Positions 8,002-45,305 of a stretch of DNA of 52,528 nt are shown in pieces (within the stretch, counting starts at the first letter, position 1; each line of letters opens with the position of its first letter). Source of the stretch: Myxococcales bacterium (lineage in GTDB: Bacteria; Myxococcota_A; Polyangia; Fen-1088); contig JAYUUT010000162.1 in assembly GCA_043754455.1 (NCBI GenBank), positions 1 through 52,528 on the forward strand, in the 5' to 3' direction. Under the pieces are notes generated by a model that did no database searches, was not told the DNA's origin, and was given only the letters and a program-made list of their open reading frames with translations. A program made the position numbers and the translations under genes.

Positions 8002-10199
8002 CCATCGGCGGCTAACAGCTCACGAACCCGACCGTGCAGCGCCTGGAGCGAAAACGGCTTGGCTAGGAAGTTTGCTGATTCCTGCGACAAGGCCTCACGA
8101 ATCGACTCGTCTTCCTGATAGCCAGAGATGAATAGGGCCGAGATCTGGTGGCGCTGCTGTCGGATCAGCGCCACCGCGTCCCGCCCTCCAAGGCGAGGCA
8201 TAGTGACGTCGCAAACAATCAGGGCGATGCGCCCTGCAAAGGCCCGGGCGCATTCAACAGCCTCTAATCCGTCGGCGGCTTGCAGGACCGTATAGCCCTG
8301 CTCGCCCAGCGACATGACCAAGAGGGCCCGCACGTCGGGGTCGTCTTCGACCACAAGCAACGTTTCACTGCCACGCGCGGCCGCCAGCGGTGCCAGCGAT
8401 TCGGGCGTTGGCAGCACCGGACCGTCGGTCACCGGCAGGTACAATTCGAATCGGGTCCCAGCCCCAGGCGCGCTGTCGACCAGGATGGCGCCGCCAGCCG
8501 TTTCAATAATTCCATAGGTGGTCGCCAACCCCAACCCTGTCCCCTGATCAGGGCCTTTGGTCGTGAAAAATGGCTCGAAAATGCGGGCCTTCACCGCCTC
8601 CGACATGCCAATCCCCGTGTCCTGCACCGTCAAACAGACAAAAACACTTCCCGTGCGCCGATCCCCCATCGCCCGGACGGTCGCTTCACGGTCGGCTCGA
8701 CACAGACCAATGATCAAAATTCCCCCGGTCGGCATGGCATCACGGGCGTTGACAGCCAGATTCATGACCACCTGTTCAAACTGGCCCGGATCCATGCGCA
8801 CGGTCCCAGGATCCCCCTCGATCCGCAGTTGCACCGCGATGGCATCTCCAATTGCCCGCCTGATCAGCTTGTCAAGATCGGTCAGGCGTTCGGCGGGCGA
8901 GAAGATCCGCGCCTCAATCACCTGACGCCGTGCAAACGTCAGCAACTGCCGGGTCAAAGCCGCCGCACGCGCCGCCGCCTGGTCGATCAGATCGAGCGCG
9001 CGTTGCCCCGCTTCAGGCATATGGTCCCGCGCCGCAGACACGCCTCCGGTCACCACCGTCAGCATGTTGTTGAAATCGTGGGCAATGCCCCCGGCCAGGG
9101 TCGCCACCGTTTCCATCCGTTGGCTTTTTGCCAAGGCCTCATGGCTTTGGCGCAGTTCAGCCGTGCGTTCAGCAACCTTCTGTTCCAGATCCACTGACAG
9201 CGCCCTCACCTGCCGCAGCGAAAGGAACTGCCGCACCAAAATCAGGATGAACACGGCCCCCGCCAACCCAATGAACACGAGGTCACGCGACCCCGCCCCC
9301 AGCAGATGTTGAACCGAGATCGGTAGGCACACCAATGCGGGCAGATACGGCAACGCGTCCGTCATCGTGGGCGAACGCACGACAGCTCCTTGGGCGGCCT
9401 GACCCCCAGCCGCGACACGCGCAGGAAGCCAAGGGGCAACGGCGCTGGCCGTGTACGCCGCTAGCCCGAAGAGGTCAACCACGTGCCCCATGTAGTACCG
9501 GCCCTGCAACGCCAACACCGTCAGCAGCAAGGTGTTGACCGCTCCCAGCAATACGCCCAAGCCCACCATCCCGACAGGGCCTGCGTACAGGCTGGGCCGC
9601 CGGGCGCAGACGTACACGATAATCCCAAGATCAAAGGTGACCCCCACCCACGTGCCAATCGCTGCCGCCTTGGCCAAAGGCACGATTCCAGAGGCCGCCG
9701 TCAGATCCCCCAGGGCGAGGGCCCAGGAGATCATGAAGCAGGAAACACCAAAAATGGCGCCATCCAGAGCTGTCTGTCCACGAGGCGCCTTGGTTCCCGC
9801 GGTGCCAGGCCAGCCCAAACTTCCGATCGCCAGAAGAATCAAAACGGGGACATTGAACCAATCTCCCAGTGACGGATAGACAGGCGAAAACCTTGGATCG
9901 GGGTTAGCGGCAAGAGTTACAATGCCTCCGACAGCGACGAACACGCCAACGCCAGCCGTGACCCCAAGAATGCGAAAACCACGCGCGGCTGCCGGTTCGG
10001 CGCGCGCGCGGAGATAACATGACACGGCTCCAAAAACCGCAAAAGCCCCGGTGACCCCGTTAATCAGATAGGCCGACAAGCGCCCGTCGGGATGGGCCAC
10101 CGCCAGCAAGGCAACCACCACGACCACCAAACCAGCCACGCCCGCCAAGGCCCGACCAATCCGGGCCGATCCCAAATGAGGGGAAAGCGGCTGCATCAC
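7977..10199 (-). CDS. Hybrid sensor histidine kinase (polytopic membrane N-terminus, HisKA, HATPase_c, C-terminal receiver)
   Basis: About 330 aa of repeated hydrophobic helices. H-box [13 protein letters not shown] box [12 protein letters not shown] boxes DTGIGM and GTGLGLA. Receiver motifs [23 protein letters not shown]. The last 25 nt overlap the ftsZ 3' end on the opposite strand. Confidence 0.85.
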
Positions 10200-10891: not shown

Positions 10892-13471
10892 GTGAGATTC
10901 GATTTTCTGGCGGCCGACGCGCGCCAGGCTTTGATCGCCGCGCAACGCCTGGCGCGGACGCGGGACGAGGACGCGGTTGAACTCGAACACCTGCTGCTAG
11001 GGCTTTTAACAACGGCACCCGTTGTCGCCCTGCTGGCCCGCGCCGAGGTCGACGCCGATGGCCTGCAGCGCGGGTTGGAACAGGCACTCTCCGGTTCACC
11101 GAAACGCCCAGGCGCCCAGGTTTTTCTAGGCGAGCGGGTGTTACGTCTTTTGGACGTTGCCCAGGTTGAGGCACAGGAACGTGGCGCTACGACCGTGGGG
11201 CCCCTGGATCTTCTGGTCGGCATTCCGCTAGAAACCCGCTCGGCGGCGGCGGAATTGCTACGTGACCGGGGGCTGACGCTACCTCGCTTGGAACAGCTCA
11301 CCTCCTCGACTGAATCGCCGCCATCGCCCACGCCACCACCGCCGCCAACCGAGATCACCCACCGCCCGTTGCTGGCAAAATACGCCCGCGACCTGATCGC
11401 CGAAGCACGCAGTGGAAAAATGGATCCGGTGGTTGGGCGCGACAATGAAATCCGCCGCATGGTCCAGATCTTGGGACGCCGTGGAAAAAATAACCCCGTG
11501 TTGGTGGGCGATCCTGGGGTGGGTAAGACCGCTATTGTCGAAGGGCTGGCGCAGCGGATGGCCGAAGGGGACGTACCCGACAGCCTGCGGGGAAAACAAC
11601 TGTTGGGGCTGGACGTAGGCCAGCTGGTCGCGGGCGCAAAATTCCGCGGGGAATTCGAAGAACGAATCCGCGGGCTGATGGCCGAAGTCCGCGATGCTGA
11701 CGGCGAAATTCTTCTGTTTTTCGACGAATTGCATACCCTGGTGGGCGCCGGTCAAGGTGAAAGCGGCCTCGATGCCGCCGAGTTGTTCAAACCCGCCCTC
11801 GCCCGCGGGGAATTGACCATTATCGGTGCCACAACACCGGACGAATACCGCCTGCACATTGAAAAAGATCCTGCGTTTGAACGACGGTTGCAGCCTGTCC
11901 TTGTGGCTGAGCCCGATGAGGACACGTGCCTTGCCATGTTACGCGCGGTGAAACCCCGCTACGAAGAACGCCACCGCGTACGCGTTCTGGATGAAGCCCT
12001 TTTGGCAGCGGTCAAACTATCGCGCCGGTATCTGGCCGGTCGCGCGTTGCCGGACAAGGCCATCGATCTGCTGGACGAGGCCGCCAGTCGATTGCGGCTG
12101 GAACTGGATTCCCGGCCCGATGAATTGGACGCTTTGGAAAGAAAGGCGCGTGGCCTCCGCGTACAAATCGAAGCCCTTCGCAAGGAACGCGGCGCTGAAC
12201 CACAGGCGTTGCGGGAAGACCGCGAAAGGCAGCTTGCTGCCTTGTCGGATCAACTGGTGCCCCTGCACGCCAAATGGCAGGCGGAACTGCAAATCATTAC
12301 GTCGCTGGGTGAGGCGGCGGCGGCACTGGAATCAACACGCGTTCATGCCGAAGCGGCCGAACGTCTAGGCGACCTCTCGCGCGCGGCCGAAATCCGCTAC
12401 GGAAAACTTCCTGCCCTGGAGACCGCCGTTCTTCGGGCTGAGGCCCGCCTGCGCGAGGCCCAGGGGACAGAGCCACTTCTGGAGGACTCATGCCAAGGGG
12501 TTCATGTCGCCCGCGTCGTAGCTGATTGGACGGGCATTCCCGTAAACCGAATGTTGGAGGCCGAACGGCAAAAGGTACTGCAGATCGAAGATCGCCTACG
12601 CAAACGTGTCGTTGGACAGGACGAGGCGGTAAAGGTCGTCGGGCACGCGATCAAACGCGCCCGCGCGGGTCTTGCCGATCCTGGACGACCCATCGGATCT
12701 TTCCTGTTCCTGGGACCAACGGGGGTCGGAAAAACTGAACTGACCAAGGCCCTGGCCGAATTTCTTTTCGACGACGAACATGCGCTGTGCCGCCTGGATA
12801 TGGCGGAATATATGGAAAAACACGCCGTTTCACGCCTGACCGGCGCCCCTCCCGGATACGTGGGTTTCGAAGATGGCGGGCAGTTGACCGAAGCTGTCCG
12901 TCGGAAACCTTTTTCTGTGGTTCTGTTCGACGAAGTTGAAAAAGCGCATCCCGATGTCTTCAATGTGCTTTTGGCATTGATGGATGACGGCCGGTTAACC
13001 GACAGCCGCGGCCGCACAGTCAGTTTTTCCAATACCGTGGTCATCCTAACGTCCAACCTGGGATCACCCGCGATCTTGGCCGCCAACGGCGATCGCGCAC
13101 GTATCAAGGCCGAAGTCGATTCCGCCCTGCGGGGACACTTCCGCCCCGAGTTTCTTAACCGTCTCGACGAGATCGTGATCTTCAACCCTTTAGGTACGGT
13201 GCAGATCGCCTCCATTGTCGATCTGCAGCTGCGACGACTGGAAAAATCGCTAGCCGAGCAAAACCTAAAACTGGACGTCAGCGCCGAAGCGCGCGCCCTC
13301 TTGGCCGAGGAAAGCTACGACCCCGCGTTTGGAGCCCGCCCTGTCAAACGCTGCGTCCAGCGGCGCATCCGAGATCCGCTGGCCGAAGCAATTCTTTTAG
13401 GCACCGTACGCCCCGGACAGGTGGTACGCGTGCAACGGGTCGATAAAACGCTGACGTTCACGGGGACGTAG
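10892..13471 (+). CDS. clpB: ATP-dependent disaggregase ClpB
   Basis: GTG start 1 nt after the preceding stop. Clp N-domain, two AAA+ modules ([16 protein letters not shown]) and a long coiled-coil middle domain between them. Confidence 0.95.
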
Positions 13472-15116
13472 CTGCGTTTTTTCGTCGGCGCCTGATAACA
13501 AACACCCCTCCCCCTGTCATCGCAGCGAATCCGACTAGCATCGTGAAGGCCGCCCCCTCGTGCGCCGCCCGAAATTCCGGAAACCACCAATCCAGACGTA
13601 CCCGCTTCCAGCGATCCTGCACATCCACCGATAGGGTCGAATACCTTCGCCATGGCGCATCGACAGACGCTGTTGCCCAGTCATCACCCGCCACCACATG
13701 CCGAAGCATCCAATAGTGGCCCATCACCGGCTGAAAGGCGGGCAACCACTGCAGGCCGTGCGTGTCTTCAAAACAGGCGCCACATAACCCGTCGTGGGTC
13801 GCCGTCGCCGCGCCTGAACGATCCGGTCCGCCCAGCCACCGCGTTGCCACGTCTTGGCTGATGCGAATGAAATGATCCCAGAAAAACGCCACCCCCAGCA
13901 CCTGCACCCAGATTCCCATCGCTATCACCACGATGACCGCCCCTTTATGAATCCTCCCTTGCCACTTCACCGTATCCAACCAAATCACCGCAGACGCCCA
14001 AACCGGCGCGACCAGAAACACTAGATACCGCGGCCCCCACGCATAGTCGCCTGCCCAAAACAGAAACGTCCCATAGATCAGCACCACGGGCCCGCCCAGC
14101 GCCAACAGCGTCACCCAGCCCACACGCCAGCGCCCCCATGCAAACCGCAGCGATGCCAATGACAGCAGAAGCGGCGGGCTGTAGATAAACACGCTTTTCC
14201 CTGGCGATAGGAACAGCCCCCACAGCCCCAGCCACAATCGTTCGCCAAAGGGCGATAGCCGTACAAGATCGCCCGATGGTTTCAGAACGTAGCCCGCGTT
14301 GAACACTGAACCGAAGCGGGCAAAGTTATACGCAAGCATCAGCGCCACAAACGGCAGCGACGCTAAGACCGTAAAACCAATCCCCCGCCAGCGTCCGCGA
14401 GCGGATCTCGCTGTCAGGAAGATCAATCCTGGCCAGGCCGCTGCGTACACGGGCTTTGTCGCCATTAGAAGCCCCGCCCAAGCCCCGACGCGGACAAAAT
14501 CGCGCCCTCGCGCCTCAGGCGTTATTCGCAGCACCGCGTCGATGAGGCCCAAGAACGCCACGGCCTGAATCGCCTCACCGTACGGCGAACGTGCATAGAC
14601 CCAAATGGTCGTTCCAAGCGCAAGCACCGCCGTACCCAGCAGAGCAGCCACTTCGCGTACTCCTTGTCGGCGCAAAAATCCAAAAAAAATCCCGCACAAA
14701 ATTGCCCCCAACAACGCCGGCCCTAGATGGCTGAAAAACGGCGTCGTGTAGGGCGCGGTTCGCGGCGCCACCAACCCCAGCAGGTACCGCAAAAAGGCCC
14801 CTGGTACATGCACTAAGGACTGCACAAGCGGTGCCACCGCGTATATGCGTCCATCTCGGCCACGGGGCAGATCCTGGGGCCACGCCGTGGGAATGTTCAC
14901 GTCCCCCCGGCGAACGAGGCTTTCAGCCACCTCCCATATCGGCGTCGCATCCCCCCAAGGCTTTTCGCGTCCGCCCGTTAAAAGAAAAAAACCGAGCACC
15001 GCGGTGAACAGCGCTGCCCGGACGCGCATAGGCGATGAAGGTGCCTCCATGAACAGGGGGACTTTAGCCTGATCCCGGGATGGAGCGCGGTTCAACGCCC
15101 CGTGGGAACGCGACAA
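13458..15116 (-). CDS. Polytopic membrane protein, GT-C-fold glycosyltransferase-like (ArnT/PMT, GT39-type)
   Basis: More than 10 predicted hydrophobic helices and a first-loop acidic/aromatic segment (GREKPWGDATPIWEVAESLVRRGD). The family call is tentative. The start may be an internal ATG (15050 or 15029). The 3' end overlaps the clpB 3' end by 14 nt. Confidence 0.5.
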   Translation of the reverse strand: MSRSHGALNRAPSRDQAKVPLFMEAPSSPMRVRAALFTAVLGFFLLTGGREKPWGDATPIWEVAESLVRRGDVNIPTAWPQDLPRGRDGRIYAVAPLVQSLVHVPGAFLRYLLGLVAPRTAPYTTPFFSHLGPALLGAILCGIFFGFLRRQGVREVAALLGTAVLALGTTIWVYARSPYGEAIQAVAFLGLIDAVLRITPEARGRDFVRVGAWAGLLMATKPVYAAAWPGLIFLTARSARGRWRGIGFTVLASLPFVALMLAYNFARFGSVFNAGYVLKPSGDLVRLSPFGERLWLGLWGLFLSPGKSVFIYSPPLLLSLASLRFAWGRWRVGWVTLLALGGPVVLIYGTFLFWAGDYAWGPRYLVFLVAPVWASAVIWLDTVKWQGRIHKGAVIVVIAMGIWVQVLGVAFFWDHFIRISQDVATRWLGGPDRSGAATATHDGLCGACFEDTHGLQWLPAFQPVMGHYWMLRHVVAGDDWATASVDAPWRRYSTLSVDVQDRWKRVRLDWWFPEFRAAHEGAAFTMLVGFAAMTGGGVFVIRRRRKNAATSP

Positions 15117-20619: not shown

Positions 20620-21129
20620 CTAATCGGGACCTCCCATGCCCAGACCATCAACCCCGGGCGTATCGCTGCCCCGGCTGTCGGCTGCCGTCGCGTCGAGCGA
20701 AGCTGCATCAACCACCGTCACAGGAGGACGAGGCTCCTCCGCAGCATCAACCTCGTCCGGATCTTTTCCAGGACAACGGGTCCTGACCTGGGGAGAAGAC
20801 CAGATCCCCTCCGAACAAACGAATGTGCTCTCGACTCCGTAGGTGACGTCGTTTATCCGGCATGTGTCCGTGACGTAAGGGCACCGGTTCATCGAGACCG
20901 CATCGCGCGGGCACGTTTCACCCTCCTTGGGGGCCTCCGCCGGGCAATACGGGGACTCTTCGCCTTCCCCAGCGCCTGAGAATCCGCCCCCATCGACACT
21001 GAAGGGAACAGGACGGCTCAGCCGCGATTCGTCGTCAAAAGGTCCCGAGCACGCCGCAAGGCCCAGGAATGCCAGCCCCACCAGGGTGAAACCAACGCAC
21101 GGCCACTTCAGTCCGCTGTATCTCTGCAT
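20620..21129 (-). CDS. Cys-rich putative lipoprotein
   Basis: The start ATG at 21129 shares one nt with the thiE stop (TGATG on the minus strand). Signal peptide with lipobox LGLAAC, then 8 further Cys (CPAEAPKEGETCPRD...CPYVTDTCRIND...FVCSEG...TRCPG). The longer ORF to 21297 lies inside thiE and is rejected. Confidence 0.55.
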   Translation of the reverse strand: MQRYSGLKWPCVGFTLVGLAFLGLAACSGPFDDESRLSRPVPFSVDGGGFSGAGEGEESPYCPAEAPKEGETCPRDAVSMNRCPYVTDTCRINDVTYGVESTFVCSEGIWSSPQVRTRCPGKDPDEVDAAEEPRPPVTVVDAASLDATAADSRGSDTPGVDGLGMGGPD

Positions 21130-21782
21130 CAGGTATTCCTCGTAAAGGCAGCCGATATCATCATTCCCGCCGCCGTTGGATCTATAGCTCGTTTTACGTC
21201 CGCAATCACCGCGGCAGCATGGGCACCCGTTCGTGCCACGTTCCCCACAGTTTCCCGGGTGATGCCGCCAATCGCGACCACCGGTACCGGGGACCACGCC
21301 GCCACCCGACGCAGCTCCTCCAGTCCCACAACCTGGTCGGGGTTTTCCTTGGTGCTGGTGCCGAACACCGGCCCGCAGCCGATATAGTCGGCTCCGGCCG
21401 CCACAGCGGCCTCGGCCTGGGCCATGGTGTGCGTGGAAACGCCGACCCGCATCGTTCGCCCTACGGCCGCCAGTACCCGTTTCACATCGTGTAATGGCAG
21501 GTCCTCCTGGCCCACGTGGACGACGTCCGCCTCCACAGCCAGAGCCACATCCAGCCGGTCATTCATGCAAAAGGGGACACCCGCCACCCGGCAGAGCGGC
21601 AGGATCCGTCGTGCGGCCGCAGCCATCCGCGCGGCACCCCAGGGCTTCGCACGAAGCTGCAAACAGCAAGGCGAAGCCGCCAACAATTCCGCGCCCCGCC
21701 GCTCTAGAAGGTCGGCTTCCGTGTCATCGTTTCCCTTCAGATCCAGGATCGCGTAGAACCCGCTTAGAATCATTGGCGCCAT
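21129..21782 (-). CDS. thiE: Thiamine-phosphate synthase
   Basis: FYAILD N-terminus, VHVGQEDLP, GADYIGCGPVFGTSTKE, VVAIGGI: typical ThiE pattern. Confidence 0.85.
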   Translation of the reverse strand: MAPMILSGFYAILDLKGNDDTEADLLERRGAELLAASPCCLQLRAKPWGAARMAAAARRILPLCRVAGVPFCMNDRLDVALAVEADVVHVGQEDLPLHDVKRVLAAVGRTMRVGVSTHTMAQAEAAVAAGADYIGCGPVFGTSTKENPDQVVGLEELRRVAAWSPVPVVAIGGITRETVGNVARTGAHAAAVIADVKRAIDPTAAGMMISAAFTRNT

Positions 21783-24776: not shown

Positions 24777-26420
24777 TTAGGTCGCGATCGCCGCCGCTGC
24801 CGCCAACGTGTTTTTTCGATCAAGCCGGTTGATCAAAACTTGCTGCAAAATCGCCAACAGGGAATTGGTCAATGTGTATATGGCAAGGCCTGCCGGCAGG
24901 AACAGCGAGAATCCCGTGAACATGATTGGCATCATCACAGCCATCATCTTCTGCTGCTGTGGATCGGTGCCCGCTGGACTCATACGCATCTGCAAAAACA
25001 TGATGCAGCCCATTAGCAAGGGCGCAACGAAGTACTGGTCGCGTGCCGAAAGATCCTGGATGTAGCCGAAGAAAGGCGTCCGGTGCAGCTCAACCGCGTA
25101 ATTCAACGCAGAAAATAGCGCGAACCATATCGGCATCGTGATAAGGGTCGGCAGGCAGCCCCCGACGGGCGATACGCCTTCGGCCTTGTACAAACTCATC
25201 GTCTCCACGCCCATTCGCTGACGATCGCTGCCGTATTTCTCCTTCAGCAGGGCCAACTTGGGCTGCAACCGCTGCATCTTCTTGCCTGACATCATCGCGC
25301 GCTGGGTCGGGTAGAAGGTCACAAGTTTTACGAAAAACGTCAGCAAGATGATGGCGAAGCCCCAATTCCCGACGACGCTTTGAAAAAATTTCAGCAACGC
25401 GATAAGCGGCCTCGCTAACCACGCCAGCGTCAGATCAACAACCTTATCCAATTGAACGTCATCACCCCCGGGCCTCACCTTGTCTAGCTCCTCCGTGACC
25501 TTCGGCCCCGCGAACACTGTCATCGCGTAATTGGCTTTCGCTTTTGCGCCCAGCTTTCTGACATCATAGGTCAAGGTGGCCTCGCCGCGCATGGCGTCCA
25601 GTCCACGCCGCGCGCAGCGCAAAGGCTGAGGCTCTCTGTGGGGCACCAGCGCCACCGCGTAGTACTTCGTGTCCGCCGCCATCCATTTCACCGCGCCAAA
25701 TTTCTCAGAAGGTTCTTTCCACAACGACTCGAACGCGTCGCGCTGAACTTTCCCATCTACGAAACAAACCAAAGTCGCCAAATCGGCAGAAGCTGCCGCA
25801 AAAAATCCGCCGCCCTTCCTTGAGGGATCTTGCTCTCCATACAAATGCACCGCCAGGGCGTGGCTCTGCTCTTTGTCGGTTCGGTTCTCGACCTGCACGT
25901 CCATCGCCAACCTAAATCCATCCCCATCGACACGGACTCGTTTTTCGACCGCGACGACCTCGGATTCCGTTCGAAACACCACCTCGGTTGATGAACGGCT
26001 CTTAACGGACCATGTCAGGCCATCGGGCAGCTTAAAATCGCCGCTTGGAAACGACAGCTGCAGCGGCGCCCCCTCCGGCTTGGCCCCTACCACATCCAGG
26101 CCACTTGCTTTGTCGCCCTTGGTTTTTAGAAACTTGTCGTCCTTGAGCACAACCTTGCGAAGATCCGCGCCAACATTGGACAGCACGTATTTGGCCCGGG
26201 GCGTCTCGAGAATGACCAACTCTTCGGGGATCAAAGGCCCGGACGGCAGTGCGGCGGCTGGCGACACGGAAGCAGAGGTCCCCCCCGCTGGTGCCAGCAC
26301 TGCGGGCACGTTCGCGGGCGCCTTCACCTGAACAGCAGGCACAGGTGGTGGAAAGATTTTCCACCACAGGAACAAGATTCCCATGCTGATCGCAACCACA
26401 ACCAAAGTACGCTTTTCCAT
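24777..26420 (-). CDS. yidC: Membrane protein insertase YidC
   Basis: N-terminal TM helix, large periplasmic domain and the conserved insertase core (QPKLALLKEKYGSDRQRM, GGCLPTLITMPIWFALFSAL). It follows yidD-rnpA-rpmH. Confidence 0.9.
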   Translation of the reverse strand: MEKRTLVVVAISMGILFLWWKIFPPPVPAVQVKAPANVPAVLAPAGGTSASVSPAAALPSGPLIPEELVILETPRAKYVLSNVGADLRKVVLKDDKFLKTKGDKASGLDVVGAKPEGAPLQLSFPSGDFKLPDGLTWSVKSRSSTEVVFRTESEVVAVEKRVRVDGDGFRLAMDVQVENRTDKEQSHALAVHLYGEQDPSRKGGGFFAAASADLATLVCFVDGKVQRDAFESLWKEPSEKFGAVKWMAADTKYYAVALVPHREPQPLRCARRGLDAMRGEATLTYDVRKLGAKAKANYAMTVFAGPKVTEELDKVRPGGDDVQLDKVVDLTLAWLARPLIALLKFFQSVVGNWGFAIILLTFFVKLVTFYPTQRAMMSGKKMQRLQPKLALLKEKYGSDRQRMGVETMSLYKAEGVSPVGGCLPTLITMPIWFALFSALNYAVELHRTPFFGYIQDLSARDQYFVAPLLMGCIMFLQMRMSPAGTDPQQQKMMAVMMPIMFTGFSLFLPAGLAIYTLTNSLLAILQQVLINRLDRKNTLAAAAAIAT

Positions 26421-26426
26421 GGGTCT

Positions 26427-26660
26427 TCAGACTTTCTCAAAGGTCGGGACCGGATCGGCCCCACCGCGACAAAAGGGATGACATCGAAACACACGCCGCG
26501 TCGCCAACCAACCACCCCGCAACAGCCCCCACTGTTGTATAGCCTCCTCCGCATAGCGGGAACATGTCGGCTCAAACCGGCAGGCAGGCCCTAAAAGCGG
26601 AGAAAGAGCTGCTCGATACAACCGCAGGGCACGGCTGACGATCGTTTGTACGGATGTCAC
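26427..26660 (-). CDS. yidD: Membrane protein insertion efficiency factor YidD
   Basis: 77 aa, [28 protein letters not shown]...CHPF motif. The GTG start overlaps the rnpA stop (GTGA). Confidence 0.85.
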
Positions 26661-27031
26661 CGTCGCGTCCCTGGTTGTAACCGTTTCAAAAGCGCTGACA
26701 ATTCGTCGAACGTTGCCTGATATCCCACGGTGTCGGCCCCTGGTCTAGCCAAGACAACCAGATCATGCCCAGCCGGGGCCGTCGGTAACAAACGACGGCA
26801 CACCTCTCGAACCCAACGCTTAACCCGATTGCGCGCAACAGCGTTACCGATCTTCTTGCTCACGGTAACCCCAACCCTTACCGTCGCCGCCCCATGCTGG
26901 CCCGGCAAAGCCAGAAGAAGATATTTCGACCCGCCCGCCCGGCGCCCCTTCGATTGAACCTCCAGGAAATCCGGCCGCCGGCGAAGCCTGGCGCGCCGGG
27001 GAAACCTGCCACCGGAGGCCGTTCCGGTCAC
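26657..27031 (-). CDS. rnpA: RNase P protein component
   Basis: [17 protein letters not shown] and [24 protein letters not shown] (RNR-box). The GTG start shares one nt with the rpmH stop. Confidence 0.85.
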
Positions 27032-27180
27032 TACTTCTTGGCTACCTTGACGGTCAGAAGCTTACGCCCACGGCGACGGCGGCGACGAATCACCTCCCGG
27101 CCTGACTTGGTGCTCATGCGTTTGCGGAACCCATGGGTGCTCTTGCGGCTTTTTCGGCTTGGTTGATAGGTACGCTTCAC
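27031..27180 (-). CDS. rpmH: 50S ribosomal protein L34 (not in the ORF track, 49 aa)
   Basis: The reverse complement of 27031-27180 translates as (V)[51 protein letters not shown] start at 27180 is preceded by GGGAGGA. Confidence 0.9.
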
Positions 27181-27219
27181 GACAGATTCCTCCCAGATCC
27201 CGCACGCGCGGGGACGGGT

Positions 27220-27248
27220 GGACTACCACCCTGTCCAGGGCCTGTCAA
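27220..27248 (-). promoter_or_regulatory. Candidate rpmH promoter
   Basis: On the minus strand: perfect TTGACA (27248-27243), 17-nt spacer, TAGTCC (27225-27220), about 30 nt upstream of the rpmH RBS. The -10 is weak by the E. coli consensus. Confidence 0.35.
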
Positions 27249-27263
27249 ACCCTCCGCCTCACT

Positions 27264-27272
27264 TTATCCACA
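27264..27272 (+). promoter_or_regulatory. Perfect DnaA box TTATCCACA
   Basis: Exact 9-mer read at 27264-27272, about 15 nt upstream of the candidate rpmH -35. Confidence 0.6.
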
Positions 27273-27411
27273 GGCCCATCTGCGAAATGTAGCCTTTAGA
27301 CCTTCGTCGCCTGCAAACAACCGCCAAACCGCCGTTTCGTTCAAGATTCTCAGCCCTTGGCCAGGGCGGCAAATCCCGTCTGACGTTTACGCCGAATTTT
27401 GAGCCTGTTTT

Positions 27412-27420
27412 TGCGGATAA
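27412..27420 (-). promoter_or_regulatory. DnaA-box-like site (TTATCCGCA, 1 mismatch)
   Basis: The plus strand reads TGCGGATAA at 27412-27420. Confidence 0.35.
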
Positions 27421-27934
27421 ACGAGCCATCGGGTTGGAAGATCAGCGCCTGATCCGCGTATTTCGCCGAGACGTGGAATCGCTATCCTCTGTCCCCGTCG
27501 GAGACCGTGAAAATGCACACCCCCCGATCGCGCCAAGCCGCATGTTATGGGCATCTGGCGCCCTTGTGCCGAACGCACGCGGAGGATCATGGTGGCGCTG
27601 CGATCCTCACCTTGGCGAAGGTCCCAAAACACCGCTATTTCGCGCGATTCCACGCACCTTCGAGGTCGCTGGTCTTTTGGGCCCCAAAACCACCCCTTTG
27701 TTCGGCGGGGAAAAACCTGGGTGATCTTCGAGATCTTGGCCCTGTCAATTTTTCCCCCTTTCGGTCCTCGAATCCCTCTGTTACACGAGAGTCCGAAGTT
27801 TTCGGATTCGTCGTCCTCGGGTTGCCCGTTCATCAAAGGGGAACTCTGGCTCGTCGGATCCCCCGTGACTAAATCAGACGCTCTAGGGATAGGTAGCCGG
27901 TAGCTGTTGGTAGATCGTGGATTGTGGTCAATAA

Positions 27935-27959
27935 CCCAAGGGGATTCTTGGGGTTTTTT
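27935..27959 (+). terminator. Terminator-like hairpin plus T6, 24 nt upstream of the dnaA ATG
   Basis: CCCAAG (27935-40), loop GGGATT, CTTGGG (27947-52), G, TTTTTT (27954-59). No annotated plus-strand gene ends here. Confidence 0.4.
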
Positions 27960-27971
27960 GCTGTTCGTACC

Positions 27972-27980
27972 TGTGGATAA
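27972..27980 (-). promoter_or_regulatory. Perfect DnaA box (TGTGGATAA on plus strand) abutting the dnaA start
   Basis: The exact reverse-complement 9-mer ends 3 nt before ATG 27984, so it may be an autoregulatory site. Confidence 0.6.
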
Positions 27981-27983
27981 CTA

Positions 27984-29357
27984 ATGCAAGCACTCTGGGA
28001 AGAAGCTGTTCGTGATATCGAACCTAAGGTCAAACCGGCCCACCGGGACCAATGGCTTCGTCCAATCAAATGTTTGGCGATAGACGGACGCCGGATTCGG
28101 CTCAGTGCCCCCAACCGCTACCAAAAGGAATGGTTTGAGGACAATTATCTGCCGTCCATCCTTCAGTCACTGGAATCGCGCGCCAAACACGATTTTGCGG
28201 TCGATTTCGAGCTCTCAGACGACAGCCCCGCCCCTACCGCCGCGTTGTCCGTATCCCCCGTCACCCAAGGTCCAGGCCTTCGCAACGACGGCCCGCCACC
28301 ACCGCCCACCCCAAAAGGTCTGGATTCCCGTTACACCTTCGAAAAGTTTGTCGTTGGACCCACGAACCAATTTGCGCACGCGGCCGCCCGTATGGTTGCC
28401 GAAGCTCCGGCTTCGAAGTTCAACCCACTTTTCATCTATGGTGGCGTCGGTCTAGGAAAGACCCATCTTTTGCACGCCATTGGCCATGAAATACATCGCG
28501 AACATCCCGATTGGCGCATCGCCTGCATTACCTGCGAACGGTTTGTGACCGAATTCATAGGCTCCATTCGCAGCGTTAAGAAGCACGCAGTCATCAACCC
28601 AATGGACGAGTTCCGACAGCGATACCGCGAAGAGCCAGACGTATTGCTTATCGACGACGTTCAGTTTCTGTCCAACAAGGACAGCAGCCAGGATGAGTTT
28701 TTTCACACATTTAATGCGCTTCACTTGGCGCACAAGCAGATTGTCCTGACCTGCGACAAGCTTCCCGGTGAACTGTCTGGCCTTGAAGATCGGCTCCGAA
28801 GCCGGTTTACCTGGGGCCTCATTGCCGAGGTGGCGGTTCCAGATCTGGAAACCCGCACCGCCATCGTCAAACGCAAAGCCGAACTAGACAACGTCGCTTT
28901 GCCAGACGACGTAGCACATCACATCGCAGCCCTGGTCCGGTCGAACGTGAGGGAGCTCGAAGGTGCCCTCTTACGCATTACCGCCCGCTCTGCCATCGAA
29001 CAGCGACCTATCACCCGTCAGCTCGCCGATGAGGCCCTCAAAAGCTACAGCACCGCCCGAGCCCCCCTGCTGTCCATTGAGGCCATTCAGCGCGAAGTGG
29101 CTTCGTACTTTGATGTCAAACTCATCGATCTCAAGGGCCCCAAGCGCCACCGGGCCATTGCTCATCCCCGGGCCATCGCAATGTTCCTCGCCCGCAAACT
29201 CACCAGCATGAGTTACCCCGAGATCGGAAGCCGTTTCGGTGGCAAAGATCACTCAACGGTCATCAGCGCCGTTCGGAAAATAGAACGGTCTTCGACCGAA
29301 GATTCCGCCCTGCACAGCCAACTTCAGACCCTCGAAGGGCACCTCCGGGTCGGATAA
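27984..29357 (+). CDS. dnaA: Chromosomal replication initiator DnaA
   Basis: MQALWEEAVRDIEPKV... domain I, AAA+ Walker A GGVGLGKTHLL, box VII, and C-terminal DNA-binding domain (RFGGKDHSTVISAVRKIE). Confidence 0.97.
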   Translation: MQALWEEAVRDIEPKVKPAHRDQWLRPIKCLAIDGRRIRLSAPNRYQKEWFEDNYLPSILQSLESRAKHDFAVDFELSDDSPAPTAALSVSPVTQGPGLRNDGPPPPPTPKGLDSRYTFEKFVVGPTNQFAHAAARMVAEAPASKFNPLFIYGGVGLGKTHLLHAIGHEIHREHPDWRIACITCERFVTEFIGSIRSVKKHAVINPMDEFRQRYREEPDVLLIDDVQFLSNKDSSQDEFFHTFNALHLAHKQIVLTCDKLPGELSGLEDRLRSRFTWGLIAEVAVPDLETRTAIVKRKAELDNVALPDDVAHHIAALVRSNVRELEGALLRITARSAIEQRPITRQLADEALKSYSTARAPLLSIEAIQREVASYFDVKLIDLKGPKRHRAIAHPRAIAMFLARKLTSMSYPEIGSRFGGKDHSTVISAVRKIERSSTEDSALHSQLQTLEGHLRVG

Positions 29358-31943: not shown

Positions 31944-34436
<2,493 letters not shown>

Positions 34437-34437
34437 A

Positions 34438-34468
34438 CCGCCCTTGGGGCAAGAGCGGGCCTTTTTTT
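34438..34468 (+). terminator. Probable intrinsic terminator of gyrB
   Basis: CCGCCCTTG / CAAGAGCGG stem (8 bp, one C-A mismatch), GGG loop, then GCC and T7 (34462-34468). It begins 2 nt after the stop. Confidence 0.5.
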
Positions 34469-34505
34469 GGCCGCCCTGCCCGCCCTTGCGTCTGATGGTG
34501 GTAGT

Positions 34506-35417
34506 TCAGCCATGGATGTTACGCACGATCTCCATCTGGATCTTGTGCATGGAATCCATCATCTGGGTCATCATTTGAAACATCCGGGAAATCTGTTCCA
34601 TGCGCTGCTGGATCATCATCATTCCCGCCTGTGATCCCATCACATCGTCGGGGATCGTTCCATCGCGAACCGCGGCCATGAACGATTCAGGATCTTTATT
34701 GTCGGCGATGAATTTTTTGGCAGCATCACGCCCCAGTTTTTCGGCTTCTTGTTTTTCGGTGAGTTCGGATTTTTCGGTTCCCTTCGAAGACGACGTGTTG
34801 CTGCCCGAAGGTGGGGCCGAAGGTTTTGTTTCTTGGGCAGGGCCTGCGCGGTCAATGTCGCCGCCGCAACCACCTGTACGCGATGGCGTTGAGGGTTTGG
34901 AGTCTCCGCCGTCAGGGGCCTTGCAGGAGGGTTGTTCGATGGGTGCGTGTTGGACCCGGTGGCCATGGTCAATGGGAGCCTCCACGTTCACCTCAGAATC
35001 AGACGAAGTTTTGGTGGGTGGTATGCCCGGATCAGTGTCTCCGGTAATGTCGTTGAACAGTTCAACACTGTCACACAGGACGGCTGGAATGTTTCCGGTT
35101 TCTAGGTTCGTGAGGAGACTCAATGTGTCCCCGACCCAGCTCAGTTCTTCTGGCAGAAGTTCGTCGCAGAGATCTTCAACGATGTCCCCCGCGTCGGGCA
35201 TGATTTCATCAAAAGCCTTGGCCAAGGGTGCGAGGACCGTTCCAATCGATTTTGCCGTGTCGCTCTTGAGGATGTCCAAAAGGGGCGAACTCCCGGCCAG
35301 CCCCAGTGCGCCTTCGGTGACAGACTTCAAATCGCCCTTTACGAGCCCCTCGGCCATCTTCATCGTGTTGCTCAGGTGGGAAGTGATCCCGTTCGTGATA
35401 GAGGAAAGGAAGCTCAT
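34506..35417 (-). CDS. Hypothetical 303-aa protein: Ser/Thr-rich acid-free N-terminus, acidic helical domain, Pro/Ser/Thr linker, Met/Gln-rich C-terminal helix
   Basis: The ATG is 2 nt after the stop of the upstream TPR ORF. N-terminus MSFLSSITNGITSHLSNTMKMA has no D/E. The linker is ...PPTKTSSDSE...KPSTPSRTGG...TKPSAPPSGSNTSSS. The last 38 aa, MMMIQQRMEQISRMFQMMTQMMDSMHKIQMEIVRNIHG, contain 11 Met. No family recognised. Confidence 0.6.
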   Translation of the reverse strand: MSFLSSITNGITSHLSNTMKMAEGLVKGDLKSVTEGALGLAGSSPLLDILKSDTAKSIGTVLAPLAKAFDEIMPDAGDIVEDLCDELLPEELSWVGDTLSLLTNLETGNIPAVLCDSVELFNDITGDTDPGIPPTKTSSDSEVNVEAPIDHGHRVQHAPIEQPSCKAPDGGDSKPSTPSRTGGCGGDIDRAGPAQETKPSAPPSGSNTSSSKGTEKSELTEKQEAEKLGRDAAKKFIADNKDPESFMAAVRDGTIPDDVMGSQAGMMMIQQRMEQISRMFQMMTQMMDSMHKIQMEIVRNIHG

Positions 35418-35419
35418 GA

Positions 35420-35842
35420 CTACTGGACCTCCTTCGACGAGGCAAACGGGCTGACCTTCGAACCACTTGCCGAGGCCTTAAGGGCAACGGCGCGATCCCG
35501 CAAAACTTCAAAGAGGCGAATGGCATCAACAATCGCGGCCCTTGAACGTTTCAATCCGTCGTCATCTGGGGCGTGTTTCAAGCCCAGTTCAGCCTGGGCA
35601 AGCGCCTCGGGAAGCTGTCCCAGGCGAAGCAAGGCCCCGGCCAAAAGGCGATGTGCGTAAGCGTCGCCGGGATCGGCTGCCAACAACCCTCGGCACATGA
35701 CAACCGTGTCGCTCCAGCGCCGCTGCTGAAATAGCTCGTAGGCGGTCCGTGAGCACTCACGAAGGACCTCGGGGGGAATGCCCACAAGATCCTTCAAAGG
35801 GTTGGTATCAAGGAACGACTCGGTGCGGCTCTCCTGGGTCAT
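35420..35842 (-). CDS. Small TPR protein resembling class II type III secretion chaperones (LcrH/SycD/CesD-like)
   Basis: 140 aa with a GAGGAG RBS. LKDLVGIPPEVLRECSRTAYELFQQRRWSDTVVMCRGLLAADPGDAYAHRLLAGALLRLGQLPEALAQAELGLKHAPDD follows the three-TPR layout and spacing of LcrH/SycD as I remember it. The family assignment is inference. Confidence 0.55.
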   Translation of the reverse strand: MTQESRTESFLDTNPLKDLVGIPPEVLRECSRTAYELFQQRRWSDTVVMCRGLLAADPGDAYAHRLLAGALLRLGQLPEALAQAELGLKHAPDDDGLKRSRAAIVDAIRLFEVLRDRAVALKASASGSKVSPFASSKEVQ

Positions 35843-35985
35843 GGCGGCTTCTCCTCTTTTGATGGCACCCGGCGTTGTTGCCGGGACGAGGAGTCTTCGG
35901 AGCCGGGCGAAAAAGGTTGCCTAAATTCGCGACGATTCTTTTTTTCACCGCCTTTGGAACTCAGAAACGTTCAGGCCCGGAATAG

Positions 35986-36018
35986 AAAAAACCCCGGGGA
36001 GCAGGGGCTCGCCGGGGT
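35986..36018 (-). terminator. Intrinsic terminator of carD
   Basis: On the minus strand: ACCCCGGCGAGC / GCTCCCCGGGGT 12-bp stem (one C-C mismatch), loop CCCT, then TTTTTT. It lies 38 nt after the carD stop. Confidence 0.65.
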
Positions 36019-36055: not shown

Positions 36056-36547
36056 CTAGCAGGCGAAGATACGGTCGAGCCGCTCTTCGATGTTGGTTTC
36101 CTTGGACTTGGTGGCAACTGCAATCTCTTTGACCAGCAGCGTCCTTGCGGTGTCGAGCATTTTCCGTTCACCGAAGGAAAGTTCTTTGTCACCTTTAAGG
36201 CGCTGCAAATCGCGAAGCACTTCGGCGATCTCAAAGACGGAGCCCGTCTTGATTTTCTCCATGTACTCGCGGTAACGACGGTTCCACGTCTGACCCTCGA
36301 CGGAAACCTCGCGGCTCTTTAGAATCTCGAAAACCTCGTCAACCTCTTCTTCCCGTATCAGTTCGCGCAGGCCGACGGCCTTTGCGTTCTTGGTCGGGAT
36401 CATTATCTTCATTCCGTTGTCGAGAATCTTCAGAATGTAGAAGTTCTCTTTTTTGGATGAGATCTCTCGCGTTTCCACACCGACGACCTGGGCAACTCCG
36501 TGGGCCGGGTAGACAGCGAGATCACCCACGTGGAAATTCGGTTCCAT
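36056..36547 (-). CDS. carD: CarD/CdnL-family RNA-polymerase-binding transcription regulator
   Basis: 163 aa. N-terminal Tudor-like module FHVGDLAVYPAHGVAQVVGVETREI...FYILKI, and C-terminal helical domain ...WNRRYREYMEKIKTGS..IAEVLRDL. Confidence 0.9.
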   Translation of the reverse strand: MEPNFHVGDLAVYPAHGVAQVVGVETREISSKKENFYILKILDNGMKIMIPTKNAKAVGLRELIREEEVDEVFEILKSREVSVEGQTWNRRYREYMEKIKTGSVFEIAEVLRDLQRLKGDKELSFGERKMLDTARTLLVKEIAVATKSKETNIEERLDRIFAC

Positions 36548-42917: not shown

Positions 42918-43016
42918 CCGGATACACCGGTTCCGGTTCTTCACCGGGGTCTGGTGATTGCCGAATGCGCACTTGTGGCGATACAATCCCCGCTTCCTGA
43001 GGTCGGAAAAACGCCA

Positions 43017-45305
43017 ATGCAGACAGGTTCCAGCAAACAACGCCTTCTTCTTGTCGACGGGGATCCAAAGAGCCTCCGGGTTCTGGATGTGAGCTTGAAA
43101 AAGCTCGGGTACCTCGTGACGCCCGCAGCCACTGGTGTCGAGGCCCTCGCGGTCCTTGAAGCTGGCCCGCCGGATCTTGTGATCTCCGACACCCACCTGC
43201 CCGAACTAGATGGTTTCCAACTGTGCCGCCGAATAAAGGAACGACCGGAATGGGCAAAGATCCCGTTCATCTTCCTTTCCAGCCGCAAATCGATGGAAGA
43301 CAAGATTCGCGGCCTAGAATTAGGTGTCGAGGACTACCTATCGAAGCCCGTCTATATCAAAGAGATCGTGACCCGCGTTAAGATGCTGCTACAGCGGCGC
43401 GAACGCGAACGCTTGGAATCCAAGCGAGGTGATGGGCGGACAAAATTCGCGGGAAAACTAAGCGACATCGGTGTCGTCGACTTGGTCCAAACCATCGAGG
43501 TCAACCGCAAATCGGGAATCATTCACGTACAAAACCGCGACAGAAAACGTGGGGCTTTGTACTTTCGTGATGGAAAAATTGTCGATGCAGAAGTGGGACG
43601 CCTACAAAGCAGCGAAGCCGTATATCGGATGTTTTTTTGGGCGGACGGCAATTTCGAGGTCGAATTCAAACCTATTCGTCGTCGTGATGTGATCGACCTG
43701 TCGGCGCAAGCCCTTCTGATGGAAGGTATGCGTCGGGTAGACGAATGGACCCGGGTCGTCGAAACCTTGCCCCCGCTTGATGCGGTATTCGTGGTTGACT
43801 ACCACCTGCTGGCCGACCGTTTGGCCGACATTCCTGACGAGGTCAACGGAATACTCCGCCTTTTTGACGGGCGCCGCACGCTCGGGCAAGTCGTTGAAGA
43901 TTCGGATTTTCCAGAGATTGCGGCTGCAACTGTCATTGGTAAGCTGCTTGGCGACCGACTCGTTTACGAGGTCCATCGCGATTCCGGGCGGGCCTTTGCT
44001 GATAATCTTGACCAGGACGAGATCGAGGCCTCGCCCCTAGATCGCTGGCTGGGACAGCCCGCTCAGGATCCGATCGACTTGTTGACTCCGGACGAGGGCC
44101 CAGATGCCCTGACCCCCATTCCTGAACCGCGGGGTCAGTCCGCGTTGCCAGGTGCCACAAGCCCGACAATCGCGATTCCCCAAGGTCCAGCACCCTCTGT
44201 CGTGGCGCCGCGAATGCCCACCTTGCGTGGGGTCGGACCTGAACACGAGGCCCTGTTGGCGGCAGTTGCCGATGCTCGTCGGCCGCTCGAATCCCGGGGT
44301 ACTCGGCTTATGAGTATTCCCCAGGCTCTTGATGCAGATGGCAGTGCGGCGTCGAACGCGGCGGCCCCAGTCGAGGCTTCCGATGCCCGATCCTCGCGCG
44401 CTGCCCCGGCGCTGGTCCAGCACGCGTCCGTCGAGGAGATAGGCCAGGACACCTCCCACGGCCACACCGATGACCCAGCCCACGACGAACCGGCGCTACC
44501 CGTCGCCGTCCCCATGCCTACGCGATCGTCGCCCGCCGTGTCCGTTTCGACGTCCATTCCGTCAGGCACTGACTTTCTGAAGGAAGATCCGACCTTCGTC
44601 ACGGAATACCTCGCCCACCGGGCAAAAAAACGAATGACCATCGGCGTGGCCGCTGGTGCCACGCTGGTCGTCGCGTTGGTTTTTGTCCTGCGCGGTGGCT
44701 CAGCCCCTCCTGACGCACCTTCTCCGATGAAAGAAGTTGCAGCAGAGGAAAAAGCGCCACCCGCAGAGCCAGTCCCTGCCCCAGCTGTGACTGCCCCGGT
44801 TGTGGCGGCACCGCCCACCGCGCCGTCCGTGGAGGTTCCCGTGGCGACGGTGCCTGCGGCTCCTGCTGTTGCTGTGCCTGCTCCAGCTGCTCCCTCGCCC
44901 GCTATTCCCGCCGTCGTTGCCCCGCCCGAGCCACCGGCCTCCCCGGCAGTCGATGAAGCAGCCGTCCTCGTTGTCGCCTGTCGCCAGGCTCATGACGGAC
45001 AAGTCTACAAAAGCATTATCGACGAATGTGGCAAAGCCCTCAAGGCCAAGCCGGACGCTGCAGACGTGATGGCCATGTTGGCCAATGCGGAGCTTGACAA
45101 GGGCAATGCCAAGAAGGCGCTTACCTGGGCTAAAAAGGCTAGCGAGGCCGATCCGAACTTTCCTGAGGCCTATGTTTTTATCGGCAGTGCCGAGCAGGTG
45201 TTGGGTCGTCCGGTCGAAGCCAAGAATGCATATTTGCGATATCTGGAACTCGCGCCAACTGGGAAATACGCTGCCGACCTGAAATCTGTCCTCGCAGGAC
45301 TGTGA
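43017..45305 (+). CDS. Response-regulator receiver, DUF4388 (PATAN-like), Pro/Ala/Val-rich spacer with TM helix, C-terminal TPR
   Basis: Start MQTGSSKQRLLLVDGDPKSLRVLD (ATG 43017). Receiver motifs VISDTHLPELDG and YLSKPV. DUF4388: FAGKLSDIGVVDLVQTIEVNRKSGIIHVQNRDRKRGALYFRDGKIVDAEVG...AVYRMFFWADGNFEVEF. Hydrophobic helix IGVAAGATLVVALVFVL. About 90 aa of PA/PV repeats. TPR-like tail (...ANAELDKGNAKKALTWAKKASEADPNFPEAYVFIGSAEQVLGRPVEAKNAYLRYLELAP). Confidence 0.75.
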   Translation: MQTGSSKQRLLLVDGDPKSLRVLDVSLKKLGYLVTPAATGVEALAVLEAGPPDLVISDTHLPELDGFQLCRRIKERPEWAKIPFIFLSSRKSMEDKIRGLELGVEDYLSKPVYIKEIVTRVKMLLQRRERERLESKRGDGRTKFAGKLSDIGVVDLVQTIEVNRKSGIIHVQNRDRKRGALYFRDGKIVDAEVGRLQSSEAVYRMFFWADGNFEVEFKPIRRRDVIDLSAQALLMEGMRRVDEWTRVVETLPPLDAVFVVDYHLLADRLADIPDEVNGILRLFDGRRTLGQVVEDSDFPEIAAATVIGKLLGDRLVYEVHRDSGRAFADNLDQDEIEASPLDRWLGQPAQDPIDLLTPDEGPDALTPIPEPRGQSALPGATSPTIAIPQGPAPSVVAPRMPTLRGVGPEHEALLAAVADARRPLESRGTRLMSIPQALDADGSAASNAAAPVEASDARSSRAAPALVQHASVEEIGQDTSHGHTDDPAHDEPALPVAVPMPTRSSPAVSVSTSIPSGTDFLKEDPTFVTEYLAHRAKKRMTIGVAAGATLVVALVFVLRGGSAPPDAPSPMKEVAAEEKAPPAEPVPAPAVTAPVVAAPPTAPSVEVPVATVPAAPAVAVPAPAAPSPAIPAVVAPPEPPASPAVDEAAVLVVACRQAHDGQVYKSIIDECGKALKAKPDAADVMAMLANAELDKGNAKKALTWAKKASEADPNFPEAYVFIGSAEQVLGRPVEAKNAYLRYLELAPTGKYAADLKSVLAGL

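Follow-up and report, generated by a model that had tools for sequence, protein, structure and literature searches.

A conserved gene pair between gyrB and carD in Myxococcota combines a protein with a diverged SctF-like C-terminal helix and an LcrH-like tetratricopeptide repeat protein

The stretch of DNA analyzed here (contig JAYUUT010000162.1 of a Myxococcales bacterium, 52,528 nucleotides (nt), referred to below as the window) carries, between gyrB and carD, two closely packed minus-strand genes for a tetratricopeptide repeat (TPR) protein of 140 amino acids (aa) and for a protein of 303 aa with a methionine-rich tail. Profile comparisons show that the 303-aa protein ends, over its last ~42 residues, in a diverged C-terminal helix of the type found in SctF, the needle subunit of type III secretion systems (T3SS), and at the sequence level the 140-aa protein resembles the class II chaperones, without being a member by curated criteria. 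The feature is real and conserved and, judged by these homologies, joins a diverged SctF-like protein of modular build to an LcrH-like chaperone. Since each of the two genes leads by itself to the T3SS toolkit, and since they are tightly coupled and constantly adjacent, they are read here as a chaperone and its substrate; with somewhat more confidence than doubt, we regard them as a filament- or needle-like subunit of the type III secretion (T3S) style and its dedicated TPR chaperone. The first-pass annotation of the window had proposed a T3S-type chaperone/substrate-like pair, and this proposal is supported and sharpened by the homology to TIGR02552, SctY and SctF, except that the substrate is not of the class II type. 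The features of the pair are the following.

35420..35842, minus strand: gene of the 140-aa TPR protein, a candidate LcrH/SycD-like (class II-like) chaperone (open reading frame (ORF) and profile matches)
34506..35417, minus strand: gene of the 303-aa needle-like protein, comprising leader, N-domain, proline motif, linker and SctF-like helix (ORF)
35043..35222, minus strand: N-terminal domain, residues 66-125, D.G.lVe..cD..LP..L..vGD......l.TGN (alignment A5)
35016..35033, minus strand: DPGIPP, residues 129-134, a degenerate copy of [E/D/Q]PxPP just after the N-domain
34773..35042, minus strand: low-complexity Pro/Ser/Gly/Thr linker, residues 126-215 (composition; AlphaFold2 (AF2) predicted local distance difference test (pLDDT) 30-37)
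34509..34706, minus strand: C-terminal domain, residues 238-303 (family alignment)
34512-34637, minus strand: SctF-like amphipathic helix, residues 261-302, ending at the C-terminus (profile homology and AF2)

In injectisome needles the C-terminal helix of SctF drives polymerization and is gripped by the needle chaperones. A profile of 75 C-terminal domains of the family of the 303-aa protein (A2) was compared with all PDB sequences, and each of the 75 domains was also scanned singly against Pfam and NCBIfam. The best PDB match of the profile was a 43-residue chain of entry 7Y6C (E 3.4e-6, 30 bits), followed by the Salmonella needle protein PrgI (residues 43-83, E 0.5-1.5). The 43-residue chain was assigned to EsaG because its residue numbering agrees with the published one, the placements of V61, K62, M64, M65, I68 and I69 of EsaG (PMC9426511) matching the numbering of the 7Y6C chain. 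In a PDB-derived table, chain F of 7Y6C is labelled as a co-chaperone of the EscG/YscG/SsaH family; its sequence and numbering are those of EsaG 31-73. The profile aligned C-terminus to C-terminus with EsaG (~31-73) and with PrgI 43-83, and hhalign of the profile against PrgI gave E 4.9e-5 over PrgI 39-80. M64 of EsaG, described as the main stabilizing anchor (PMC9426511), aligns with a conserved methionine of the family. As to the single scans, 41 of the 75 C-termini matched the Pfam family T3SS_needle_F (PF09392) at E <= 1 (best E 2.3e-10) and 25 matched the SctF model TIGR02105 (best E 8.4e-9). SctI was matched by five, EspA and SseB by two each, and no other family came up to a similar extent; SEP, the Pfam family next in number of matches, reached E 0.007 at best.

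The 303-aa protein itself gave no match when searched directly against Pfam and NCBIfam. Its link to SctF runs via a relative, P0048, and is transitive but statistically solid by sequence comparison. P0048 was found at E 3e-16 by a profile of the window protein and one homologue (P0002), BLASTP connects the window protein with P0048 through both the C-domain (E 2e-11) and the N-domain (E 3e-9), and the C-terminus of P0048 scores 30.1 bits against a Pfam gathering cut-off of 29.4. The earlier statement that no described family has such a tail consequently has to be given up: the tail falls into the PF09392/TIGR02105 superfamily, the window copy being too diverged to match. Evidently, curated SctF models miss modular, diverged relatives of the needle.

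For the 140-aa protein, the TPR identity named in the first-pass annotation was confirmed by a match to Pfam TPR_19 (E 2.7e-8). The best specific matches were TIGR02552 LcrH_SycD (6.9e-7, 29 bits, the cut-off of 104.8 not being reached) and SctY (25.5 bits, under its cut-off), so that the profile check of both proteins advised there returned TPR_19 and a sub-threshold TIGR02552 for this partner and SctY in addition. LcrH_SycD was matched by seven of the seven partner TPR proteins tested. A profile of five orthologues from the gyrB-carD junction matched IpgC (2.9e-5), PcrH (2.3e-4, over the full length, 15-138 versus 6-127), SycD (4.7e-4) and AcrH (6e-3), with generic TPR proteins scoring alongside, and the single 140-aa sequence gave generic TPR matches only. 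Furthermore, hhalign against an LcrH-like TPR protein encoded next to sctV in another Myxococcales genome (L004, see below) yielded P 96% and E 3e-9. Membership in the YscG type was rejected, no YscG family occurring among the Pfam/NCBIfam matches at E <= 10. A substrate of the class II type, i.e. a hydrophobic translocator (SctE/SctB), was ruled out for the partner, which has no hydrophobic translocator segment.

The 303-aa protein belongs to a sizable family. Whereas a word-indexed homologue search returned just 1-2 relatives per query and thereby gave a false orphan impression, an exhaustive HMMER search with the profile of the window protein and P0002 found 170 cluster representatives at E <= 1e-3 and 107 at E <= 1e-10, the named sources being metagenome-assembled genomes (MAGs) of 'Polyangia bacterium', 'Myxococcales bacterium' and 'Proteobacteria bacterium'. 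With 170 representatives, and with the gyrB-carD junction present in nine other metagenomic contigs, the pair is not the orphan that it had been called. Family proteins range from 154 to 430 aa and share one plan. They begin with a conserved start, M-[SG]-[FL]-L-x-[SG]-[IL], followed by an N-domain of ~55 aa (D.G.lV...D..LP..L..vGD......D..TGN......l.DLPQ). Comparison of the N-domain profile with PDB and Pfam returned noise only and no known homologue, and on this sequence evidence it is a new domain. In the window protein, ~65 extra residues (residues 1-65, 35223-35417) stand between the MSFLSS start and the N-domain, which most members lack (alignment A5). The first acidic residue of the window protein is at position 23, in line with the earlier remark that the first 22 residues contain none.

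At a fixed distance past the N-domain a proline motif follows, usually in the form F/Y-E-P-x-P-P-P. Of 129 full-length members, 68 have [E/D/Q]PxPP between residues 68 and 107, as compared with 2.3 expected from shuffled sequences, and the motif may be a candidate chaperone-binding peptide. The subsequent Ser/Thr/Ala/Pro/Gly linker is hypervariable in length and sequence across the family; in the window protein it spans residues 126-215 with 51% Pro, Ser, Gly and Thr, which agrees with the ~90-aa linker described before. The C-domain of ~65 aa always forms the end of the protein (..D..FM.AvR.G.IP..V..dp.aM..lQ.Rm..I.qMnqLmT.Mm.AmH.M.MsIIqNiR), and the C-termini of the members end N-[IVL]-R-x. 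A recount gave the 11 methionines reported among the last 38 residues of the window protein, and Met-richness proved to be a family trait, the last 40 residues of the members containing 8 Met in the median.

AF2 modelled the 303-aa protein with confidence over residues 215-302 only. Residues 263-302 are modelled as one long helix with pLDDT mostly ~83-94, decreasing to ~70 near the C-terminus. This helix is strongly amphipathic (hydrophobic moment 1.25 versus 0.46 +/- 0.24 in shuffled sequences) and carries its methionines on one face; EsaG is also Met-rich at the same positions. For these reasons a reading of the tail as a copper-binding or other Met motif was set aside. The protein has no transmembrane segment (maximum 19-residue Kyte-Doolittle score 0.97) and no Sec-like signal. 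Foldseek searches of PDB with the whole AF2 model and with a C-terminal model gave no match at E <= 0.001, which we attribute to the fact that a single long helix is uninformative in such a search.

Both ORFs of the unit were recovered as annotated, 35420..35842 and 34506..35417 on the minus strand with a gap of 2 nt (TAG-TC-ATG). The AAGGAGG of the 303-aa gene lies 10 nt 5' of its ATG and still inside the TPR gene, at its 3' end; a coupling this tight points to co-translation of the two genes. The signals and flanking genes are as follows.

35850..35856, minus strand: Shine-Dalgarno sequence GAGGAG of the TPR gene (read from the sequence)
35428..35434, minus strand: Shine-Dalgarno sequence AAGGAGG of the 303-aa gene (read from the sequence)
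35983..36010, minus strand: intrinsic terminator of carD (hairpin 35989-36010 and U-run)
34446..34488, no strand assigned: hairpin region where the gyrB and needle-like genes converge, statistically weak
32007..34436, plus strand: gyrB, flanking gene converging on the pair
36056..36547, minus strand: carD, flanking gene upstream of the pair

The carD terminator, which had been named as one boundary of the unit, is strong: its fold has -30.8 kcal/mol (z = -3.4), and none of 200 shuffled sequences folded equally well. It separates the pair from carD as an independent transcription unit, which must therefore have its own promoter in the 143-nt spacer. A sigma-70 promoter scan of this spacer (35843-35985) found no site, other promoter types being outside its coverage. 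On the gyrB side a hairpin and a T-run are indeed present, but the terminator is weaker than claimed. The 5-bp stem with its T7 run at 34446-34469 folds no better than shuffled sequences (z = +0.4), and the alternative, a 12-bp hairpin at 34451-34488, makes a better fold (z = -1.7). The low guanine-cytosine (GC) content noted for the 3' end is real (49.6% in the stretch coding for residues 216-303) and originates from the amino-acid composition, as had been supposed for Met, Ile and Gln codons, rather than from foreign DNA, because the GC content at third codon positions (GC3) is normal there (63.6%, neighbours 62-69%). Horizontal transfer of the pair was rejected on the grounds of this native GC3 and of the conserved synteny.

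Conservation of the pair at the junction, recommended for checking in the first-pass annotation, was found in relatives, the order carD - small TPR gene - family member - gyrB recurring in nine other metagenomic contigs.

Junction loci: L001, L002 (partial), L003, L005, L006, L007, the P0120 contig, L011 and L012

In related loci the carD and gyrB flanks carry the Pfam CarD and GyrB domains, and in the MAG of L003 the full order reads dnaA-dnaN-recF-gyrB-pair-carD-pepA-jag. The junction needle-like proteins of L001 and L003 are ~30-36% identical to that of the window; P0035, P0036, P0057 and P0120 match it by the family profile alone. Adjacency of the TPR partner was observed in the window, L001, L002, L003, L005-7, the P0120 contig, L011, L012, L010 and L004, the partner being called a TPR protein by Pfam or, in L005-7, by alignment. 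L010 is a different locus with swapped order, the TPR gene lying downstream of the family member, and in the P0141 contig a 176-aa gene without a Pfam match lies upstream of the member. In one contig (JGI, 10,629 bp) the TPR and needle-like genes read as a single 398-aa ORF, P0165. Comparison with P0166 and P0164 indicates that they are connected by a frame change close to where the TPR gene ends, i.e. either a sequencing indel or a natural fusion.

The only direct tie of the family to an export apparatus is locus L004, from a Myxococcales MAG, where a distant family member lies among three LcrH-like TPR genes 1.9 kb from SctV. This SctV passes the NCBIfam equivalog cut-off (814.8 versus 692 bits), and the flanking LcrH-like TPR genes score 72.8 and 79.5 bits. 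The upstream LcrH-like TPR sequence (8857..9231) looks truncated and is not called as a gene. No further sctV-adjacent example was confirmed in two metagenome scans.

In the remainder of the window, 25 of the 30 large ORFs scanned against Pfam had matches and five had none. The matched ORFs all fall under housekeeping or signalling functions: two alcohol dehydrogenase-type oxidoreductases, ftsQ/A/Z, a hybrid histidine kinase, clpB, an RlmL-type methyltransferase, pyruvate carboxylase, an OmpR-type response regulator, uvrB, a Methyltransf_4 protein, yidC, dnaA, dnaN, jag, bioD/F, gidB, an APH-family kinase, a DUF4388 response regulator, tsaD, ksgA, fpg, phoH and hemD. The genes recF, gyrB, carD and pepA were identified by their place in the conserved block and by the Pfam domains of their equivalents in L005. 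At 42954-45305 (plus strand) a response regulator of 783 aa combines DUF4388/PatA_N with TPR domains; its gene and the neighbours tsaD, gidB, bioF, bioD, jag and pepA are syntenic in L005, indicating that the origin-proximal gene order is highly conserved in the lineage. Four ORFs at 13458-15116 (minus), 20620-21297 (minus), 2363-2896 (minus) and 3133-3702 (plus), of 552, 225, 177 and 189 aa, respectively, had no Pfam match at E <= 1e-5. The ~1.5 kb between yidC and dnaA (26420-27984) contain no ORF of at least 150 aa; rpmH/rnpA/yidD, and possibly oriC, would be expected here.

On the basis of the tail homology and the pairing, the following course of events is proposed. The TPR protein, made from the same message just upstream, would bind the subunit in the cytoplasm and keep it soluble and unpolymerized. 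It might either grasp the amphipathic Met-rich helix, as YscG, PscG and EsaH do, or take up the extended proline motif in its concave groove, in analogy to class II chaperones with PxLxxP peptides. An SctV-type export gate, encoded at another place in the genome, would then take over the subunit. Flagellin and EspA likewise have a hypervariable middle between conserved termini, and this layout suggests a filament with a decorated surface: the termini would make up the core of the rod or filament, and the Ser/Thr/Pro linker its outer face.

A number of observations weigh against this reading. The window protein and its isolated C-terminus do not match the SctF models (PF09392, TIGR02105) at E <= 1-10, nor do its nearest and most Met-rich relatives P0002, P0005, P0007 and P0009, and the connection to SctF is the transitive one described above. 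The SctF matches cover positions 30-71 of the hidden Markov model (HMM) only, that is, the second helix of the needle; its hairpin partner, the N-terminal helix, could not be recognized in the family proteins, and the 303-aa protein has ~4 times the size of a needle subunit. The TPR scores lie far under the curated cut-offs and are mixed with generic TPR matches. Canonical needles need two co-chaperones, and only one chaperone gene is seen in the unit, where no third small gene for a YscE-like second chaperone was found. Consistent with what the first-pass annotation stated, T3SS or flagellar genes are absent from the 30 large ORFs scanned in the 52.5-kb window, and no T3SS gene was found in stretches of up to 21 kb around the junction of L003, L005, L011 and L012. 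The sctV-adjacent member (L004 8857-10147) requires two frame changes for read-through, probably long-read errors, with a pseudogene or decaying genes as the alternative. Moreover, the family comes from Polyangia/Myxococcales MAGs, while the group for which surveys mainly report recognizable T3SS genes is Myxococcia and not Polyangia (PMC10196010, PMC11821767). Finally, the deeply fixed position among replication genes would fit a housekeeping role too.

Several of these points are accommodated by an exapted remnant, i.e. an SctF-like helix and an LcrH-like TPR protein of T3SS descent now working without an export apparatus, for example as a cytoplasmic self-assembling scaffold with TPR-gated polymerization in a housekeeping process tied to the origin-proximal neighbours. 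Such a T3SS-independent role is a serious rival, especially given the fixed place among replication genes, and we consider it quite possible, although not probable. The gyrB-carD position within the block dnaA-dnaN-recF-gyrB ... carD-pepA-jag is invariant across relatives whose needle-like proteins have diverged, around none of the junction copies was a T3SS gene seen, T3SS genes are reported mainly from Myxococcia, and the codon GC3 is native. Nevertheless, the family shows hallmarks of T3S substrates that are exported, namely the conserved extreme N-terminus, the strictly terminal helix and the tightly coupled chaperone gene, one family member adjoins sctV, and the neighbouring genes are functionally unrelated, so that the synteny may reflect the general stability of the region. 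If the lineages are truly without an export gate, a needle polymerization module would have been exapted to a T3SS-independent role.

Rather improbable, in our estimate, is a T3S substrate of another class, such as an EspA/SseB-like sheath or filament, a tip protein or an SctI-like inner-rod adaptor, on which the TPR protein would act as it does for translocators. The conserved termini and variable middle recall EspA and flagellin, the scans contain the few matches to EspA, SseB and SctI given above, and the partner is class II-like rather than of the YscG type. The SctF models, however, are by far the commonest and strongest matches (41 and 25 of 75), and hydrophobic translocator segments are missing. 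Chance resemblance between a T3SS pair and a generic TPR protein beside an unrelated disordered protein, whose Met/Gln-rich helix mimics a coiled coil, is already disfavoured and appears very improbable to us. Single long helices are prone to spurious matches, the window copy alone matches no needle model and Foldseek found nothing; but four independent libraries or tools gave the same C-terminus-to-C-terminus register with best E-values of 2.3e-10 and 8.4e-9, each partner by itself leads to T3SS families, and L004 adds the adjacency to sctV.

Compared with known systems, the family protein shares with the SctF needles (PrgI, MxiH, YscF, EsaG) an amphipathic C-terminal helix at the very end of the protein with a ...[IV][IV]xN[IVF]R-type terminus, the methionine anchor corresponding to EsaG M64 and an adjacent dedicated chaperone gene. 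It differs from them in size and build, with 303 aa (154-430 in the family) instead of a helix-PxxP-helix hairpin of ~70-90 aa. The second helix alone is homologous, and the novel N-domain, the proline motif and the long variable linker are extra; the window gene also lies outside any T3SS cluster and scores under every curated threshold. In contrast to the needle co-chaperone complexes YscE-YscG, PscE-PscG and EscE-EsaH (PMC9426511), the unit has a single partner gene without a YscE-like second one, and the sequence of this partner is class II-like and not YscG-like. With the class II chaperones LcrH/SycD, IpgC, PcrH and SicA the TPR protein has in common the length of ~140 aa and the position of its gene immediately 5' of the presumed substrate, with a gap of 2 nt and adjacency in at least 10 loci; it may also share their all-TPR build, the orthologue profile aligning over the full length to PcrH and AcrH amid generic TPR proteins, and the proline-containing linear motif of the partner could fill its TPR groove. 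Unlike them, it reaches 29 bits against a cut-off of 104.8, and its cognate protein is no membrane-inserting translocator. Class II chaperones are acidic, whereas the TPR partner has an isoelectric point of 6.7. In EspA and flagellin, conserved terminal helices form the core of the polymer. The EspA/SseB filaments and flagellin resemble the family in their conserved termini and hypervariable, presumably surface-exposed centre; few members match EspA or SseB, though, and these only weakly, and the middle of the family proteins is disordered and of low complexity instead of a folded domain.

The last comparison concerns the needle-less systems of the same phylum. The T3SS loci of Myxococcales branch earliest among the non-flagellar T3SSs and are considered to have lost SctF, which 'should have been found' if present (PMC3459982, Abby and Rocha 2012), and the predation apparatus of M. 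xanthus is described as a 'needleless' T3SS* whose delivery route is unknown (PMC12075869, Herrou et al. 2025). Secretin and translocon are likewise reported to be missing from the Myxococcales T3SS* (PMC3459982, PMC12075869). In the literature searched we found nothing linking SctF to Myxococcus or Myxococcota beyond the statement of absence in PMC3459982, and no description of the needle-like family. The family is known here from Polyangia/Myxococcales MAGs, and any connection with T3SS* would be hypothetical. Tentatively, and as a less than probable extension of the needle-like reading, the family might be an overlooked SctF-derived rod or filament subunit of type III-like systems of Myxococcota, overlooked because of the fused new N-domain and variable linker, the sub-cut-off scores and a locus in the origin region outside the sct cluster. 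If this were true, 'needle-less' systems would build an atypical, surface-decorated polymer of the needle type, which might bridge the periplasm without a secretin. A widespread, unannotated Myxococcota family that combines an SctF-type helix with an LcrH-like chaperone thus offers a concrete candidate for the missing periplasmic or extracellular element.

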